A stretch of 64,000 bases of DNA from Leptonemataceae bacterium. Lineage in GTDB: Bacteria; Spirochaetota; Leptospiria; Leptospirales; Leptonemataceae. A program made the position numbers and the translations under genes. Of this stretch, positions 54,206 through 61,272 are shown piece after piece (position 1 is the stretch's first letter; every line of letters starts with the position of its first letter). The notes below the pieces were generated by a model that did not search any database, was not told the origin of the DNA, and was given only the letters and a program-made list of their open reading frames with translations. The stretch spans positions 2,464,001-2,528,000 of the forward strand of contig OZ245742.1 of the NCBI GenBank assembly GCA_965227295.1. Direction: 5' to 3'.

Positions 54206-54919
54206 GTGGCGGAGAAGATCTACAGAATTCCCACGGTGCCGCCCGGGGAGGATCATGCGCTCAGTGTCGTTCTTCTTTATATATCGGTGCCGGCGTTTAT
54301 TGCCACCGTTGCCCTGGCGAAAGCTTTTGGGACGGTGGTATTGTCGATTCTGCTGCCTCTGGCTATGGTCGGCATCCTGGTCTATCTTGCTGCGTATCAG
54401 GGATGGGTATCAAAGATCGCGCCGAAGAAGCTGAGTGCCGTTCGTGTAACCGACAGCGATGTTATCTTAGAGTTCGACAACGGCGCGCCGGACGAGCGCA
54501 TCGCCCTGGCTGATCTGCAGCACGTAGAACTGGACCTGCGTTCCGCTGCGGACGGCACTCTGACTCTCGACGCCGCCTCCGGAGAGATCAGCGTACACTC
54601 CGGCGATGCCGGCGTGCTCTGGTCCTTGCGTAAACATCTGGAGACTGAAATCTACGCGCGGAAGGTTACACCGCGGCCGCCGCCGATTGTGCCGGCTCCG
54701 GAGCCGCCGTCCCGGCCCCGGTCGCCGGCGGCGCAGCTCGGGCGTATGTCGCATACGCGGACGCGACGGGTGCAGAGTTCGGAAGCGGAAGCGGAAACGC
54801 AAAGCGTAGAGGAAGAAGTGTCGACCGAGAGCGTGGAGCCGCCCCGGCCATCGCTGGAACTGAAGCCGGAAGAAGCGGGTGAGGCCGAAGACGAAGCACA
54901 ACGCTGGCGGTCGATCTAA
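54206..54919 (+). CDS. RWRSI-tail membrane protein, paralog 1 (type A)
   Basis: 2 TM, beta-rich domain, Pro/acidic linker, ends EDEAQRWRSI. Confidence 0.8.
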   Translation: MAEKIYRIPTVPPGEDHALSVVLLYISVPAFIATVALAKAFGTVVLSILLPLAMVGILVYLAAYQGWVSKIAPKKLSAVRVTDSDVILEFDNGAPDERIALADLQHVELDLRSAADGTLTLDAASGEISVHSGDAGVLWSLRKHLETEIYARKVTPRPPPIVPAPEPPSRPRSPAAQLGRMSHTRTRRVQSSEAEAETQSVEEEVSTESVEPPRPSLELKPEEAGEAEDEAQRWRSI

Positions 54920-54922
54920 CAT

Positions 54923-55618
54923 ATGCCGAAGAGAACTTACATAATGCAGGCGTCGCCGCGCACACCCTTCGTCACAGGTCTTACCTCTGTGCTCGTCCTT
55001 GTCGCGGTCTCCTTGATGCTCTTTTTCGTATTGCTCGCCGTCTTTCCGAAGGCTGGTTTCCATGTGATCCTTCTGTTTCTCGCGCTCGGGATCCCCGGCT
55101 TGCGTTTCATAAAGAAAGTTGCGCCGCGGGCGCGAAATGCACCGACGAAGGATGCGCACACGGTTCAGCTAACGGAGGAAAGCTTGTTGTTCGAGTCCGG
55201 CACCACAAGGACGAAGGCGCAACTGGCACTCGATGAAATCCGCCGAACTGTCTTAAAAGTCTCGTCATCGAAATCCGGCAAGCTCAGCATCTACGCGCGC
55301 GGCCGGAACCTCGTCATTCGCGCGGCGGATCCCGCGGCGCTGGCCGAGTTGCACGCGGATCTCGAAGACGAAATTCGCAAACGCAAGTTCGCATCCGCCC
55401 ATCCTGCACAGTCGCATTCCGGCCCGAAAACGGCTCCGATCCCGCCCTCGCGACTGAGGTTGCGGACACAGGGGAGTGGAGTCGCGGAGCCGTCGACAGC
55501 CGGAGTGGGGGATGCTAATGCTGCAACAGAGAAAGTTAAAGAGGCTCTGAAGGCCGTGCACGAGGGAGGCGCAGCGGAGATCCAGGAAGACGAGCAGGGT
55601 CGCTGGCGGTCTATCTAA
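54923..55618 (+). CDS. RWRSI-tail membrane protein, paralog 2 (type B)
   Basis: Same architecture, ends EDEQGRWRSI. Confidence 0.8.
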   Translation: MPKRTYIMQASPRTPFVTGLTSVLVLVAVSLMLFFVLLAVFPKAGFHVILLFLALGIPGLRFIKKVAPRARNAPTKDAHTVQLTEESLLFESGTTRTKAQLALDEIRRTVLKVSSSKSGKLSIYARGRNLVIRAADPAALAELHADLEDEIRKRKFASAHPAQSHSGPKTAPIPPSRLRLRTQGSGVAEPSTAGVGDANAATEKVKEALKAVHEGGAAEIQEDEQGRWRSI

Positions 55619-56356
55619 ATGGCGGAGAAAACTTATAAAATCCGGGCGCCGATCGATTCGCAGCGAATCGGATTGATCGGCCCCGCGTTCTGGGCGCTGA
55701 TCTTGTTGCCGCTGGTGTTGACCGACGGCGGAGTTCTATCCGCGACCGTTTTTCTGGTGACGATTCCGGTGTTCATCGGCTTTGTCGTGTGGTTGTTTCA
55801 ATGGGCGCGCAAGGGATCGGGAGTGCGGGCCGTGCGATTAACAGACGATGAATTACACTTAGAGCGAGTCGCCCGCCGGCCGGTGCCGCCGTTTTCGCTG
55901 GATGATCTGCGCCTGGTCGAGCTGAAGATGGAAGCCGCAAACAGCGCGACCATTCGCATCGTCTTCACGAATCGTTGCCTGGAGATCGAATCCAACGACT
56001 CGGGTACGCTCTGGGCCCTGCGCAAACATCTGGAAAACGAGATCCAGGCCCGGCGCGCTTCCAGCCCGGCTTCGCCCGTTTCGGCGCCGCCCGTGAATCC
56101 CGGACCAGGCTTGCGACTTCGGCGCCGCACGCATGTGCGCCCGCGGTTGCGATCGACGCTCGGCGAGGCGCCGGAGGAATCGCAAGAGGCTTCGCAAGAA
56201 GATGTGAGTACGCACGAGGAATCGCGCGAAGATCATAACAAGCCGGAGCCGCCGCCCGCGCTGGAACTGAAACCGGAAGCCGTGTCCGAAGAACCGCCGC
56301 CTGTCGAGGAAGCGGACGAGACGGATGACGAAGAACAGCGCTGGCGGTCGATTTAA
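55619..56356 (+). CDS. RWRSI-tail membrane protein, paralog 3 (type A)
   Basis: Same architecture, ends DDEEQRWRSI. Confidence 0.8.
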   Translation: MAEKTYKIRAPIDSQRIGLIGPAFWALILLPLVLTDGGVLSATVFLVTIPVFIGFVVWLFQWARKGSGVRAVRLTDDELHLERVARRPVPPFSLDDLRLVELKMEAANSATIRIVFTNRCLEIESNDSGTLWALRKHLENEIQARRASSPASPVSAPPVNPGPGLRLRRRTHVRPRLRSTLGEAPEESQEASQEDVSTHEESREDHNKPEPPPALELKPEAVSEEPPPVEEADETDDEEQRWRSI

Positions 56357-56375
56357 TTCGCAGCGCGCATAAATC

Positions 56376-57092
56376 ATGGCCGAAAAGATACACAACATAC
56401 CCGCGCTGCCGCGGCCCGAAGGCTTCGACTGGACCGAGATCGGCTGGCGTCTGATCGTAATTGCTGCGGCGGTGATGATCCTGCTTCTTTTTGCCGCGGT
56501 GGCGTTGTCCTACAGCCAAATCACTCTCGTCGGAATAATGATTTTTTTGGCAGTACGCTTTATACTCTATGTGATGGACAGCGAGGACAGAGCGTGGCCC
56601 GCCCCGGCCCAACCGACGCCCGCGCCGATTCATCTGCGCAAACAGGCAAGCCACACGGTTCGATTAACCGAAGATGAAATCATCTTTGAATACGGAGCGA
56701 ACGGCCGGAGCATGCGCCTGCGTCTCGACGACGTTCGTCGCGTGGGAAAAAACGTACGCTCCGTGGATGAGGCTAAGTTGATCATCCATGCCCGGCGCCG
56801 CAACCTGGTGATCCGTACGAATCAACCGCACATGCTCATGGATTTGTACGCACACCTGGAGGACGAGGTCCGGAAACGCAAACTGCCGACAACGCCGCGG
56901 GCGCGGCGGCGCGCGGGTCCGAAGACGGCTCCGATTCCACCTTCGCGATTGAAGCTACAGAGTGCGCCCGCGCAGAAGCCCGCGGAGGATGCCGGGGCGG
57001 CGAAAGAGAACGTCAAAGAAACCCTGAAGGCCGCGCACGAAAAGGCCGCCGATACCGAAGACGATGAACAAAGCCGCTGGCGTTCGATCTAA
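56376..57092 (+). CDS. RWRSI-tail membrane protein, paralog 4 (type B)
   Basis: Same architecture, ends DDEQSRWRSI. Confidence 0.8.
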   Translation: MAEKIHNIPALPRPEGFDWTEIGWRLIVIAAAVMILLLFAAVALSYSQITLVGIMIFLAVRFILYVMDSEDRAWPAPAQPTPAPIHLRKQASHTVRLTEDEIIFEYGANGRSMRLRLDDVRRVGKNVRSVDEAKLIIHARRRNLVIRTNQPHMLMDLYAHLEDEVRKRKLPTTPRARRRAGPKTAPIPPSRLKLQSAPAQKPAEDAGAAKENVKETLKAAHEKAADTEDDEQSRWRSI

Positions 57093-57095
57093 TAC

Positions 57096-57438
57096 ATGGC
57101 GAGAAGAAGTTACAAGCCACGCAGTCTGTGGCGACCGAAGACGGCGACGAACGAGAAGGTATATAAGGTCCGGCGCCCGCTGAAGCCAGGCGCGGGTCGC
57201 CGCCGAGATTCGTAATCTGCGGTCTCTCGGCGACCAATTGAACGCGGAGTTGCGCAAGCGCGGTCGCGCGGGAACGCAAACGAACATTGCGAAAGATGCG
57301 TTCGCGAAAGGTGCAACGGACGATGCGTCGGCGCAGCGCGAGTGCGCCGTGCAAGAAGATGCACCCGGCAACGCGGCGCCGGAAAAAGATGCGCGGGACG
57401 GCACCGAAAGCGAAGAAGATCGATGGATGTCGATCTGA
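57096..57438 (+). pseudogene. RWRSI-tail paralog 5, internally deleted
   Basis: MARRSYKP.. start stops early; a second frame gives LGDQLNAELRKR...SEEDRWMSI*; TM and core domains absent. Confidence 0.65.
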
Positions 57439-57488: not shown

Positions 57489-57728
57489 TTAATCCGGATA
57501 CTTCGCGAAGGTATTCGGGCAAATCTTCTTGATGCCGGCGTCATCTTCGGTTTCGATGATTTCCACCAGCTTGTTCTGAAAATCTTCGTCTTCGATGTCG
57601 ATGCCGTTTTCGTAGGCTTCGGTAAGGCATTCTTCCAGGATCTGTTCGCCGTCTTCTTCGGCGAAGGCCGGCACCGCAAAAGCAACGGTCAGCAAGGCCG
57701 TAAGCAGAGCGAGGATCAACTTTTTCAT
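57489..57728 (-). CDS. small secreted acidic protein
   Basis: RBS AAGGAG, signal peptide ending AFA, two Cys. Confidence 0.75.
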   Translation of the reverse strand: MKKLILALLTALLTVAFAVPAFAEEDGEQILEECLTEAYENGIDIEDEDFQNKLVEIIETEDDAGIKKICPNTFAKYPD

Positions 57729-57886: not shown

Positions 57887-57917
57887 TTGACAGCTTTCCC
57901 GCGCACGGAGGCATACT
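57887..57917 (+). promoter_or_regulatory. possible sigma70-type promoter with long spacer
   Basis: TTGACA-N19-CATACT upstream of the tRNA-like element; imperfect palindrome overlapping the -35. Confidence 0.35.
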
Positions 57918-57989
57918 GCCCTGCTTCGTCCCGGGGTCAGGATGTTGCCGTCCGGCGGTGCCCGAGCCTGAGATCGGCGAGGGTATTTC

Positions 57990-58092
57990 GGCGAAGCGCA
58001 AAAAAATCTGGAGGTCAGTGGTTCGAATCCACTACGGGGCGCCAATCAGTCCCGTTAGCTCAGCCGGTTAGAGCGCCCGACTGTAACTCGGT
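57990..58092 (+). ncRNA. circularly permuted tRNA-like RNA, YrlA-type Y RNA candidate
   Basis: T arm AGTGG-TTCGAAT-CCACT, then ACGGGGC-GCCA-ATCA-GTCCCGT acceptor hairpin, then D arm GCTC-AGCCGGTTA-GAGC; GGCGAAG at 57990; exact ends uncertain. Confidence 0.7.
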
Positions 58093-58374
58093 AAGGCCCG
58101 CAGGAGCCTATCCTGCACCCCCGGAGGCGCGGGACGTCTCAGCGCCGGGAACGGAACGCGGGCTGCGGCCTGCGGGAAATTCCCGGCGCACCGGAACATC
58201 GGCCAGCAGGTCGCGGATACCGATCCGTGCCGCCGCTTCGCAACCGCGCGCCGCCCGTATTCGGTCGGTGCAAGGTCCCGAGGCAGCGTGCGCGCATCTC
58301 AAGCAGACCTCCGCCGTTGCGAAGGGAGGCGTTCCGCGTCTTCATTTTCGTAACTTTTTTTGAGAAGTAGTTAG

Positions 58375-59487
58375 ATGATTCACATTAAGAAACATGAACG
58401 TGGATTGATGTATCGCCACGGAGATTTCGTGCGCTTGATCAGCAAACCAGGGCCGGTGCGGGTCTGGAGTTTCGCCGGCTATCATCTTGAAATCCTGAGC
58501 GCCGGTGCTCCCTTTACCCCGGACCACGACGCGGGTCTTTATCTCGAGGACCCCGACTTCGCCGCCGCGACGGACGTCTTCGACGTCGCCGATCACGAGC
58601 GCGGTTTGCACTACGTGGACGGTCACTTAAAAGAACTGCTGCATCCCGGCCGTTACATCTACTTCAAGTCCCACGTGCGTCGAGAGGTCCGCAAGTTCGA
58701 CGTGCGGTTGCCCGAAATTCCCGCGGACGTCGTGCCGGCGCTGCTCCGATTGCCGCAGTGGAATCTTTTCATGAGCCGTGAACAGGTACAGAAACACGAG
58801 GCGGGTCTGCTTTTTTTTAACGGCGTGTTGCAGCGGACCCTCGAAGCCGGCGCATACTACTTCTGGCAGGGCCCCATGAACGTCCAGGTGCAACGCGTGG
58901 ACCTTCGCCGCCGGCAGATCGATATGGCCGGCCAGGACATCATGACGGACGACAAGATCACGCTGCGGCTGAACTTCGTGTTCCAGTACAGAATCGTCGA
59001 TCCCGTGAAGGTCGGCACGGGCATCGAAGATTTTGCGAATCAACTCTACGTTTTGTTGCAATTGATCTTAAGGGAGTACGTCGGAACGTTAAAGCTCGAT
59101 GAGCTGTTGCAGAAAAAAGAAGAAGTGGATCAGTACGTCCTGGGCAAGCTCAAAGCAAAGGCCGACGAATACGGCGTGGAGTTCCTGTACGCCGGCGTGA
59201 AGGACGTCATCCTGCCCGGCGAAATCAAGGACATCCTCAATCTGGTGCTGACCGCGGAGAAGCAGGCCCAGGCGAGCATCGTCACTCGCCGCGAAGAAAC
59301 CGCGTCCACGCGCAGTTTGTTGAACACGGCGAAGCTCATGGACGAGAACCCCACGTTGTATCGCTTAAAAGAGCTTGAGTATCTTGAACGCATCAGCGCC
59401 AGGGTGGATAGCATTTCGGTGATGGGCGGCGGATCGGTGTTGGAACATTTGAACGCGGCGTTGTTGCGCGAACGCGGGAAAGAGTAG
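58375..59487 (+). CDS. slipin family SPFH/band 7 protein
   Basis: Repeated ERGL/EAGL units, GQDIMTDDKITLRLN, VKDVILPGEIK, RREETASTRSLLNTAKLM.ENP. Confidence 0.92.
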   Translation: MIHIKKHERGLMYRHGDFVRLISKPGPVRVWSFAGYHLEILSAGAPFTPDHDAGLYLEDPDFAAATDVFDVADHERGLHYVDGHLKELLHPGRYIYFKSHVRREVRKFDVRLPEIPADVVPALLRLPQWNLFMSREQVQKHEAGLLFFNGVLQRTLEAGAYYFWQGPMNVQVQRVDLRRRQIDMAGQDIMTDDKITLRLNFVFQYRIVDPVKVGTGIEDFANQLYVLLQLILREYVGTLKLDELLQKKEEVDQYVLGKLKAKADEYGVEFLYAGVKDVILPGEIKDILNLVLTAEKQAQASIVTRREETASTRSLLNTAKLMDENPTLYRLKELEYLERISARVDSISVMGGGSVLEHLNAALLRERGKE

Positions 59488-59510: not shown

Positions 59511-60242
59511 TCAAGATGCTTTCGAGTGGGAATCGGACAGGACGGTCAGCCCGGGCATTGCGTTGTGTTCGCGACCCTGCAAGAGCCGCCCGTTTTTTTT
59601 CTTATTCGTGCCGCCCCATTGTTTGAAGAAAAAGGGTACGCCCTGTTTTTTGCACAGATCCCGCACTTCAATCACCCAATCTGTTTGCATCAGTCGCGCC
59701 CGTCTACCTGACTCGCCGCCGACGATCACCCAATCGATTCCGCTCAGGTTCATGCCGCGAACACTGGAGAGGAGGGGCTCCACGGATAAGAATTTCACCC
59801 GGGCCGGAACCCGGCGTAGATCGTCGATACGTTGATAGACTTGCGCGTTTTCGATCGAAACCCCCATCCAGATATTCGGCGACCAGTTGAGATGCGAACT
59901 CAGTTGCGCTAATCTTTGGGAACGCTTTGTTAGTATTTGAAATGTGTGGTGCGGACATCGGCGCATCACGTCGAAAACTCGCTGAATAAAGGATTCCGGA
60001 ACGTCGTCATGGAAGAGGTCGCTCATTGAGTTGACGAAATAGATCGTCGGCTTCCGGCGCCTCAGGGGAATTGCCAGGCGATGCTCATGTATTTTAACCT
60101 CGTTGAATTGCCCCCATTGCGTTTCGAAGCGCCGGGTGAGGGCTTCGGCATAGCAGTATTTGCAGCCGGAGCTGACTTTGGTGCAACCGGTTGTCGGATT
60201 CCAGGTTGCTTCGGTCCATTCAATGGAAGATTGTACGGCCAT
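59511..60242 (-). CDS. DUF5131 (phage Gp37/Gp68-like, three-Cys motif) protein
   Basis: [53 protein letters not shown]. Confidence 0.93.
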
Positions 60243-60244
60243 GT

Positions 60245-61075
60245 TCAGTCTCTATACCTGTCGAAGATTTCGGACACGATTTTGGCGCCTGTTGCATTCG
60301 GTGATGCGAAAAGGACGTAGTACACTACGGCCCCGCGGGAATTTTTCATCGGCAACGGGTCTGCGACGTATTGGAACCCTGCAACGTTTTTGAGGCGCTG
60401 GCGAAACCCTTCGGCGATAGTTTCATTGTCGGTTTTTTCGGAGACAGGCCCGAAGAGATCTTGTTGAACATTGTAGGCAATGGATCTCCATGATTCATCT
60501 CCCCAAAAGCGGTTCATACGCTCGACATTTGCTGCGGAAACGGAATCCTGATTCTTTCGGAAGACGTTGCGGTTCATATCCATAATCGGGAAGTTCAAAA
60601 AGATCTCAATACGGCCACTCAGTCCCGCGGTTTGGAGGATTTGCCAGTCCAATTGTAAGCCGTAAGGGTCCAGAATACACAGGCAGCGCATGTAGCGGTC
60701 CCTCAGTAACTGCGGAAAAACCTGTTTCAAGAGGATATCGTTGCAGTCGCCCTCATAATACCTGGCGTCCGGGTGATCGCCGGCCTTTTGACGAAGGTGT
60801 TGAATCTTGGCGGAATTCATATCAATGAAATGATATCCGCGAAACGGTGGCCGGGTGCGCAAAGCGATAATCGGGCTGCCTTCGATTGGCCTGCGGCCTT
60901 CTTTTGATAGGTGCAGTCCGGCCCCCGAAAAAGCGTCCACATAGTGATGACGAAAGTATCCCTGTGCGCTCAAGATTCTGGAATAAGCGGAGGCATACTT
61001 GCGGATGACCTCAAGTTTTATTTCAGACCACGGTCCGATTTCGTCCGGATCGAACTGTAATTCCTCGTCTGACAT
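60245..61075 (-). CDS. tcmP: three-Cys-motif partner protein TcmP (methyltransferase-like)
   Basis: [31 protein letters not shown]; directly upstream of DUF5131. Confidence 0.88.
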
Positions 61076-61272
61076 CACCGATCCCCCTTTTGATCGGCAG
61101 TATACCAGAGGGGTGTGACATTTTTTGATTCGAGGCGCAGACATTCTCAACCGGCTTCCCCCCGCCAATCGCACCGCTGCTCATTTCCCGTGACCTTCCC
61201 GATACCCCCGCGTCTCAAGTTTCGCGTGACGTACCCACCCCACCTTCTTAACCTGGATTCGGACATCCCTGC

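Follow-up and report, generated by a model that had tools for sequence, protein, structure and literature searches.

A permuted tRNA-like element within a conserved structured RNA of about 420 nt upstream of a slipin gene in a Leptonemataceae bacterium

The locus and its tRNA-like core

The window analysed here is a stretch of 64,000 nt from the genome of a Leptonemataceae bacterium (GenBank assembly GCA_965227295.1, contig OZ245742.1, positions 2,464,001 to 2,528,000), which consists of one contig of 5.94 Mb and is 93.55% complete; coordinates below refer to the window unless a contig is named. On its forward strand, a gene coding for a slipin of 370 aa from the SPFH/Band-7 proteins (58375-59487) is preceded by a tRNA mimic that is the core of a conserved structured RNA of approximately 420 nt (about 57925-58345, forward strand throughout). 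Convergent with the slipin gene, the reverse strand carries a DUF5131 gene and a gene for the three-Cys-motif partner TcmP (59511-61174), the stop codon of the former lying about 25 nt from that of the slipin gene. On the other side, an acidic open reading frame of 79 aa with a signal-peptide-like start (57492-57728, reverse strand) diverges from the RNA, and four or five similar genes for small membrane proteins, each with a QRWRSI-like terminal peptide, are located at 54206-57436; a search with one of these proteins gave no Pfam or NCBIfam match.

In agreement with the original prediction, the core reads as the 3' half of a tRNA followed by a 5' half, and every element was found at the position previously assigned to it. 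The 3' half comprises a strand TCTGG (58007-58011), which in the manner of YrlA RNAs can form four of five anticodon-stem pairs with 58076-58080, the variable loop AGGTC (58012-58016), and a T arm of 5 bp with the loop TTCGAAT (58017-58033) that is supported by an Rfam match, its sequence and covariation. It is followed by an acceptor-like hairpin of 7 bp (58034-58055), to which the predicted fold, a count of comparable junctions and covariation all point. Within this hairpin the strand ACGGGGC (58034-58040) pairs over its full length with GTCCCGT (58049-58055) through the predicted six Watson-Crick pairs and one G-U pair, and the closing loop GCCAATCA contains G73-CCA (58041-58044). The 5' half continues with a D arm of 4 bp (58058-58074), supported by an Rfam match and covariation, and with the segment CCCGA-CTGTAAC (58076-58087). 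While this last segment had been read correctly, it had been overlooked that it can also close locally, as CCGA (58077-58080) pairs with TCGG (58088-58091) around CTGTAAC to give an anticodon stem-loop with four of five pairs and the anticodon GTA (58076-58092). In the window copy, the anticodon stem therefore has two alternative pairings, one with the upstream strand and one local. A further T-arm-shaped hairpin with a non-canonical loop, GCAGG-AGCCTAT-CCTGC (58100-58116), gives a weak tRNA match and is nearly unchanged in both copies from the same genus.

Both the YrlA and the tRNA model of Rfam match the element, the former at 58010-58077 with 29.3 bits, which falls below the gathering score of 69, and the latter with 28.7 bits. 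ARAGORN calls no tRNA in the window as it stands; a call appears once the element is circularised or re-ordered by script (runs with introns allowed produced noise). Across the genome, T arms are followed by D arms at seven junctions, six of which are junctions between tandem tRNAs with 0-1 cross pairs, and the junction described here is the only one where the acceptor strands cross-pair, with 7 pairs. No T-then-D junction occurred in five shuffled genomes, and the cross-paired arrangement is more than a product of chance; the local fold energy is by itself unremarkable (z = -1.7). Contigs from two public sequencing runs, which belong to one study and are possibly the source of this very DNA, show zero letter differences, and among the sequencing runs listed as containing the sequence none was of RNA. 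An origin as integration-site remnant was rejected because each half matches genomic tRNAs over no more than 19-32 nt of the D arm, and a two-piece tmRNA because the genome has a normal tmRNA and the element keeps its full D stem.

Flanking domains and distribution of the RNA

The extent initially given to the feature (57990-58092) placed the core correctly and missed the much larger remainder of the RNA. Upstream of it, a candidate promoter can be recognised from the sequence (57887-57917), with TTGACA (57887-57892) and CATACT (57912-57917) separated by a spacer of 19 nt, owing to which a consensus promoter scan passes over the pair; TTGACA precedes the RNA at several related loci as well. 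The 5' domain (57940-57990) consists of a GGATG/CGTCC hairpin (57940-57953) and a bulged helix with a variable capping hairpin, in which GCGGTGC (57955-57961) pairs with GTATTTCG (57983-57990) leaving a bulge of 2 nt. On the other side of the core, a long irregular helix with a variable apical hairpin, hereafter the 3' rod (58123-58343), is suggested by alignment A2 and the fold of the window copy; it includes a conserved internal loop, GGATACCG (58215-58222) opposite CTCAAG (58298-58303), and a GGC..G/CCG motif.

In alignment A1 of the 5' domain (48 rows, T arm included), 13 of the 20 pairs change on both sides, a number equalled in none of 500 shuffles, as do 21 of the 23 pairs of the 3' rod in A2 (46 rows), where 0-1 of 500 shuffles reached as high a value; the two structures were derived from these same alignments, and kinship inflates the covariation scores. 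Pairing in A1 amounts to 94%, compared with 32-55% in slid controls. Since the rows of A2 were chosen by a pattern for the two loop motifs (70 of 97 passed), the invariance of the motifs is partly built in, whereas the covariation of the helices is unaffected. Conserved unpaired bases are present in both flanks, namely in the bulged GTG.C/GTAT helix of the 5' domain and in the GGATACCG/CTNAA loop of the rod. The rod is followed by a U-rich tract (58344-58361) that is likely to be the 3' end or a terminator-like site, and it stops about 20 nt ahead of the ribosome-binding site of the slipin gene, which is left uncovered.

No Rfam family matches the 5' or the 3' flank. An interdigitated double T-loop as in T-box RNAs and RNase P, with the consensus AGNNA ... 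UGNNA (PMC3664808), was rejected for the rod, where 43 of 46 rows have GGATA as the first strand and only three of the 46 carry a G as second base of the other strand. Group I and group II introns, HDV-like ribozymes and riboswitches were likewise dismissed, there being no Rfam match and nothing recognisable by eye. A loose pattern for the 3' domain matched 41 of 61 related genomes and is uninformative.

With respect to homologues, a close slipin orthologue (41-68% identity) was found in 16 of 60 relatives, and in 14 of these 16 a permuted tRNA-like unit lies approximately 300-500 nt upstream, as detected by sub-threshold Rfam YrlA matches in 12 cases and by eye and model in two (L008 and L015). 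R1, a model built from the 5' domain together with the T arm, matches upstream of the slipin gene at 60 of 65 held-out metagenome loci, i.e., those of 80 loci that had enough upstream DNA, none of which was used in building the model. The association with an SPFH gene first noticed in the window is thus borne out. A T loop occupies the equivalent position in 77 of the best 80 GTDB loci, which are mostly from Paenibacillus. In the 61 related genomes, R1 gives 11 matches above 30 bits, all at slipin loci and nine of them training rows; near 31 bits it also matches ordinary tRNA pairs, and of the 11 genomes matched among 151 in a scan of the phylum seven contain ordinary tRNA-Lys/Glu pairs. The model is also insensitive, scoring two stand-alone RNAs (see below) with just 13-16 bits, so that its silence in 44 non-carrier relatives does not equal absence. 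No relative of the slipin was found in viruses, and none of 80 viral pattern loci, out of at least 120, matched R1.

Comparison of the regions upstream of slipin genes, which had been suggested as a check, revealed that all five shared pairs of the acceptor stem covary and that 96.7% of the cells are paired in 24 rows hand-picked for a clear D arm; the element therefore does not represent two decaying tRNA genes, the outcome that would have spoken against the original prediction. Other tRNA-like traits vary considerably. Of 93 leaders, 61 have a local anticodon stem-loop, in which the anticodon varies and tends to be rich in U (TTT in 17, TCC in 11, TTC in 10, GTT in 8), and 32 have no recognisable one; to judge from these sequences, the shape of the loop is kept and its identity is not. 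CCA lies within the closing loop of only six of 87 units, and the acceptor stem has 7 bp in nine of 87. Two types of unit can be distinguished, one in which the strand after the D arm pairs upstream of the T arm, as in YrlA, and one with a local stem closing an anticodon loop of 7 nt; both occur in tandem at three loci (L009, L013, L071), and the two-way pairing of the window copy is not general in the family. In many Paenibacillus copies the D arm has decayed, and a Burkholderia locus has a tRNA-like unit in canonical order behind a first T arm. The family thus offers natural variants of the RNA with one or two tRNA units, an open or closed anticodon arm, and stand-alone copies. A separate T-before-D unit (L137; G008:C304:1865-2153) adjoins a tRNA-Gly-like gene, with no slipin or rsr neighbour within 5 kb.

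By the sequence GGCGAAG (57990-57996), which fits the motif GNCGAAN0-1G of YrlA RNAs, the element had originally been regarded as YrlA-like. The fit is present but most likely due to chance: the motif is unconserved, occurring in two of 88 parsed leaders (97 in total, nine unparsable), it is expected in 3.6% of draws of 66 nt, and the covarying 5'-domain helix ends on its first G.

The slipin and the RNA-repair genes

The product of the gene downstream of the RNA is a Band-7 protein by profile and a slipin by database name. With a cut-off of E<=1e-30, its subfamily numbers no fewer than 7,861 protein clusters, some of which may be more distant SPFH types. Its predicted structure (pLDDT 85.9) contains three beta repeats, the SPFH domain and a long C-terminal helix. 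The best structural match is stomatin over residues ~109-350 (Z about 16), from which the slipin differs in having no membrane segment, no 19-residue window in the hydropathy scan exceeding 1.04. Among the matches listed, only chains of the major vault protein (residues 323-721) span residues 1 to 354 of the slipin (Z 10-12, rmsd 7-10). The alignment thus covers the whole length; however, the major vault protein has about 800 aa and nine repeats, as compared with 370 aa and three repeats in the slipin. In the vault protein, the tandem repeats, an SPFH shoulder and a cap helix assemble into a cage. Modelled alone (pLDDT 94.5), the repeats match the first SPFH subdomain with Z about 5.5 and the major vault protein with Z 4.3-4.8, values that are weak and within the range of common arrangements. 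The vault-like layout suggested by these models should be taken as a lead and not as a result; if true, a soluble RNA-bearing slipin cage would be a bacterial counterpart of the vault in simple form.

In two genomes of the same genus (G001 and G002) RNA and slipin gene are separated. No RNA leader precedes the slipin gene, which instead has TTGACA 74-77 nt upstream, and a complete RNA is found elsewhere in the genome, in G001 with a convergent next gene and in G002 followed by an unrelated gene, in both cases finishing with the rod and a U run. Both RNA and slipin have thus been kept after their separation. In a further genome (G155), a similar copy of the RNA lacks a slipin gene within 1.5 kb. 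These copies favour a discrete trans-acting RNA that is usually co-transcribed with slipin. The slipin reading frames of G001 and G002 (L007 and L006, respectively) are longer, with 419-428 codons and an insertion of ~30-50 residues after the second repeat.

The original prediction had also stressed that neither Ro60 nor RtcB is encoded nearby, and this can be extended to the genome for Ro60. No Ro60/Rsr gene was found there with PF05731, PF25045 (vWA_Ro60) or tblastn using two Rsr proteins, the additional Rsr searches having been run because the TROVE profile PF05731 missed the Rsr genes of two relatives (G005 and G024); it is insensitive, with hits in one of 61 related genomes as compared with four of 61 for an Rsr query. 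The single rtcB gene is located 1.48 Mb from the RNA, and rtcA at yet another place. Elsewhere, the 4-kb flanks of the 80 GTDB loci include an rtcB gene in 34 cases, and the 3-kb flanks of 60 metagenome loci in 26, whereas two Rsr queries gave no match in either set. Among the relatives, rtcB is present in 15 of 17 carrier genomes vs 13 of 44 others, although kin are not independent; it adjoins the RNA neither here nor in the 15 carriers having it, and was not found in the carriers G039 and G048 (99% complete; 21 kb and 48 kb, respectively, outside the search).

An Rsr gene is present in two of the 17 carriers, G005 and G024, within a separate rsr-RNA-rtcB-rtcA operon the RNAs of which differ from the present family and reach 15-16 bits at most when scored with R1. 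With the Rfam YrlA model, RNAs linked to Rsr in relatives likewise attain only 29-43 bits. These two operons (L136 and L135) have the order rsr, a Y-RNA-like RNA, a tRNA-like RNA with an expanded arm, rtcB and rtcA, and their Rsr proteins lie below the Pfam TROVE cut-off.

In a Citrobacter record, rtcR is followed by a weak, reduced match to the RNA (18.3 bits), a slipin gene and a nucleotidyltransferase gene. A TGGCAC box in this record resembles a sigma-54 promoter. RtcR is described as being activated by tRNA fragments, and in the same study Salmonella YrlA was uncut by the anticodon nuclease investigated (PMC7790460). The Anabaena slipin alr0740 is reported to be de-repressed together with rtcB and the trn operon of spare tRNAs, with TrcR as the repressor (PMC10272220; PMC9938897), and deletion of the SPFH gene in the rtc locus of P. 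aeruginosa to be without phenotype in the reported tests (PMC13086221); either protein may belong to a different subfamily from the present slipin. Some 26 and 15 divergent tRNA genes, respectively, were called in two large arrays in inverted orientation (G000:C1:4547528-4559530), which resemble a spare or mobile tRNA set, with no tRNA-Tyr called among them; an Anabaena array of such a kind is described as co-regulated with rtcB and a slipin (PMC10272220). What bacterial RtcB repairs, and the role of its tRNA-like companion RNAs, is stated to be an open question (bioRxiv 10.1101/312249).

Relation to known RNAs and possible function

The pairing with a Band-7 gene has been reported before: a tRNA-like RNA encoded next to RtcB and a protein of the Band-7 type ('b7a-tRNA') was predicted in 2016 by Burroughs and Aravind, as cited by Wang et al. 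(bioRxiv 10.1101/312249), who give it as experimentally unvalidated as of 2018 and also mention that YrlA occasionally adjoins a Band-7 gene. The likeness consists in a tRNA-like RNA adjoining an SPFH/Band-7 gene, often with rtcB. However, b7a-tRNA is described there, second-hand, as strongly resembling authentic tRNA, whereas the present copy is permuted and embedded in a covarying structure of ~420 nt; also, rtcB is remote from the RNA in this genome. The canonical-order unit of Burkholderia is perhaps the form first given that name; no b7a-tRNA family was among the Rfam matches.

YrlA RNAs (RF02553) share with the element the T-before-D order, the closed acceptor hairpin, conserved elbow bases and a link to RNA repair. 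What defines them is the motif near the 5' end, a Ro60/Rsr gene close by (within about 4 kb, same strand) and binding of the RNA by Rsr in vivo (Chen et al. 2014, PMC4201824), whereas here the motif is unconserved, Ro60 is found neither nearby nor in the genome, the score is far below the gathering score, and the RNA is three to four times longer. Moreover, YrlA is without an anticodon loop and has a terminal stem made from its two ends, whereas most members of the present family keep a local anticodon stem-loop; the window copy can adopt either pairing. The element hence resembles a YrlA-type tRNA mimic in its working and, on motif and Ro60, falls outside YrlA, so that its original identification as a YrlA Y RNA was not upheld. 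It is most suitably classed with the predicted tRNA-like RNA of Band-7 loci, as a permuted version of far greater length. Possible novelties are the long domains on either side of the core, the retention of an anticodon loop, the existence of stand-alone copies and the vault-like architecture suggested for a soluble protein, no description of the long RNA having been found in the accessible literature on b7a, slipin/SPFH/RtcB, Y RNA/Band-7 and vaults (most subscription papers and the bioRxiv supplements lay outside this scope). The lack of an Rfam family for a structured RNA of this size, located before so widespread a slipin subfamily, would amount to a sizeable gap, and the predicted RtcB companion now has defined ends and three covarying domains, which opens it to expression, probing and pull-down.

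With somewhat better than an even chance, the RNA acts as the trans-acting partner of a soluble slipin in RNA repair of the 'Band-7 + b7a-tRNA' kind without Ro60. This reading builds on the covarying structure, the linkage to slipin, the frequent linkage to rtcB and the two stand-alone copies; the Citrobacter gene order, the joint regulation in Anabaena and the kept shape of the anticodon loops are in line with it. The RNA would be transcribed under translation stress and would end, or be cut, at the U tract past the 3' rod; a ring or cage of slipin might grip it via its 5' and 3' domains, by analogy with Ro60 and the Y RNA stem, leaving the tRNA elbow and the U-rich anticodon loop exposed, which could attract tRNA-handling enzymes. 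It may thereby serve as a decoy for anticodon nucleases, one of the options first put forward, and offer a docking site to the RtcB ligase, here encoded elsewhere. Several points count against a trans-acting partner. Not every copy retains a complete tRNA shape, the local loop being missing in about a third of the leaders (32/93) and D arms having decayed; rtcB does not adjoin the RNA here or in the carrier relatives and was not found in two of them; Salmonella YrlA was uncut by the nuclease mentioned above; the P. aeruginosa deletion gave no phenotype in the reported tests; and the GTDB loci come mostly from one genus. A more elaborate version, in which a miniature vault-like slipin cage carries the ~420-nt RNA, the permuted tRNA with its live anticodon loop traps anticodon nucleases and stages RtcB repair, and the whole is a widespread replacement for Ro60-Y RNA, is doubtful.

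Alternatively, the RNA might be a cis-acting leader that detects damaged tRNA, or an enzyme that cuts tRNA, and governs read-through beyond the U tract to the slipin gene. The fixed position and spacing before slipin at most loci, the terminator-like rod and U tract between RNA and gene, and the two possible anticodon-stem pairings of the window copy would be in line with this; however, the two-way pairing is confined to some copies, the rod stops short of the ribosome-binding site, and the whole RNA has been kept without a downstream slipin gene in G001, G002 and apparently G155, which makes a leader rather unlikely. It is improbable that the flanks form a self-processing or catalytic RNA that excises or circularises the tRNA-like core, alone or together with RtcB. 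The conserved unpaired bases exceed the needs of a plain stem, and ~420 nt is within the size range of large ribozymes, but the flanks gave no Rfam match, inspection by eye revealed no core resembling those of group I or group II introns or of HDV ribozymes, and the loop invariance in A2 partly reflects the row-picking pattern.

Even less can be said for an orphan YrlA RNA with a lost or missed Ro60 partner, which we consider quite improbable. YrlA is the best Rfam match here, the same model matches below threshold at 12 of 16 related loci, the order of T arm, acceptor stem and D arm is the same, and Ro60 can be overlooked, given the TROVE failures in G005 and G024 and the genome completeness. 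Against this stand the rarity of the motif (2/88), the lack of Rsr hits in this genome with two profiles and two proteins, the restriction of Rsr to a separate operon with dissimilar RNAs in two of 17 carriers, and the length of the RNA, Y RNAs having 80-147 nt (PMC4201824).

Processing of the permuted gene into a working tRNA, as also considered in the original prediction, is very improbable. The window copy does have a 7-bp acceptor stem and N73-CCA in place and yields an ARAGORN call after re-ordering, but CCA and the 7-bp stem are rare in the family (6/87 and 9/87), and the genome already has a normal tRNA-Tyr(GTA) at C1:1845732. Furthermore, bacterial tRNA-Tyr has identity features at odds with G73 and with a variable loop this short. 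The M. smegmatis YrlA RNA with a stem of the same length is described as being cut by RNase P and gaining CCA (PMC4201824), and RNase P could nick the window copy without making a tRNA. Likewise, permuted tRNA genes of algae and archaea (bioRxiv 10.1101/312249) share the order with the 3' half first and a loop-closed acceptor stem; in the present family, by contrast, CCA, the 7-bp stem and anticodon identity are unconserved, large flanking domains are present, and the genome has its normal tRNA-Tyr. Finally, a functionless remnant of two tandem tRNA genes is hardly credible: the parts are tRNA-derived, and tandem units as well as one unit in canonical order exist in the family, but ordinary tandem junctions pair 0-1 bases, the flanks are conserved across phyla, and the acceptor-stem covariation (5/5) largely refutes this origin.

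At the end of the contig, ARAGORN calls repeat at an offset of 29 kb (5897894 and 5927021), which suggests a duplicated stretch or an assembly overlap.
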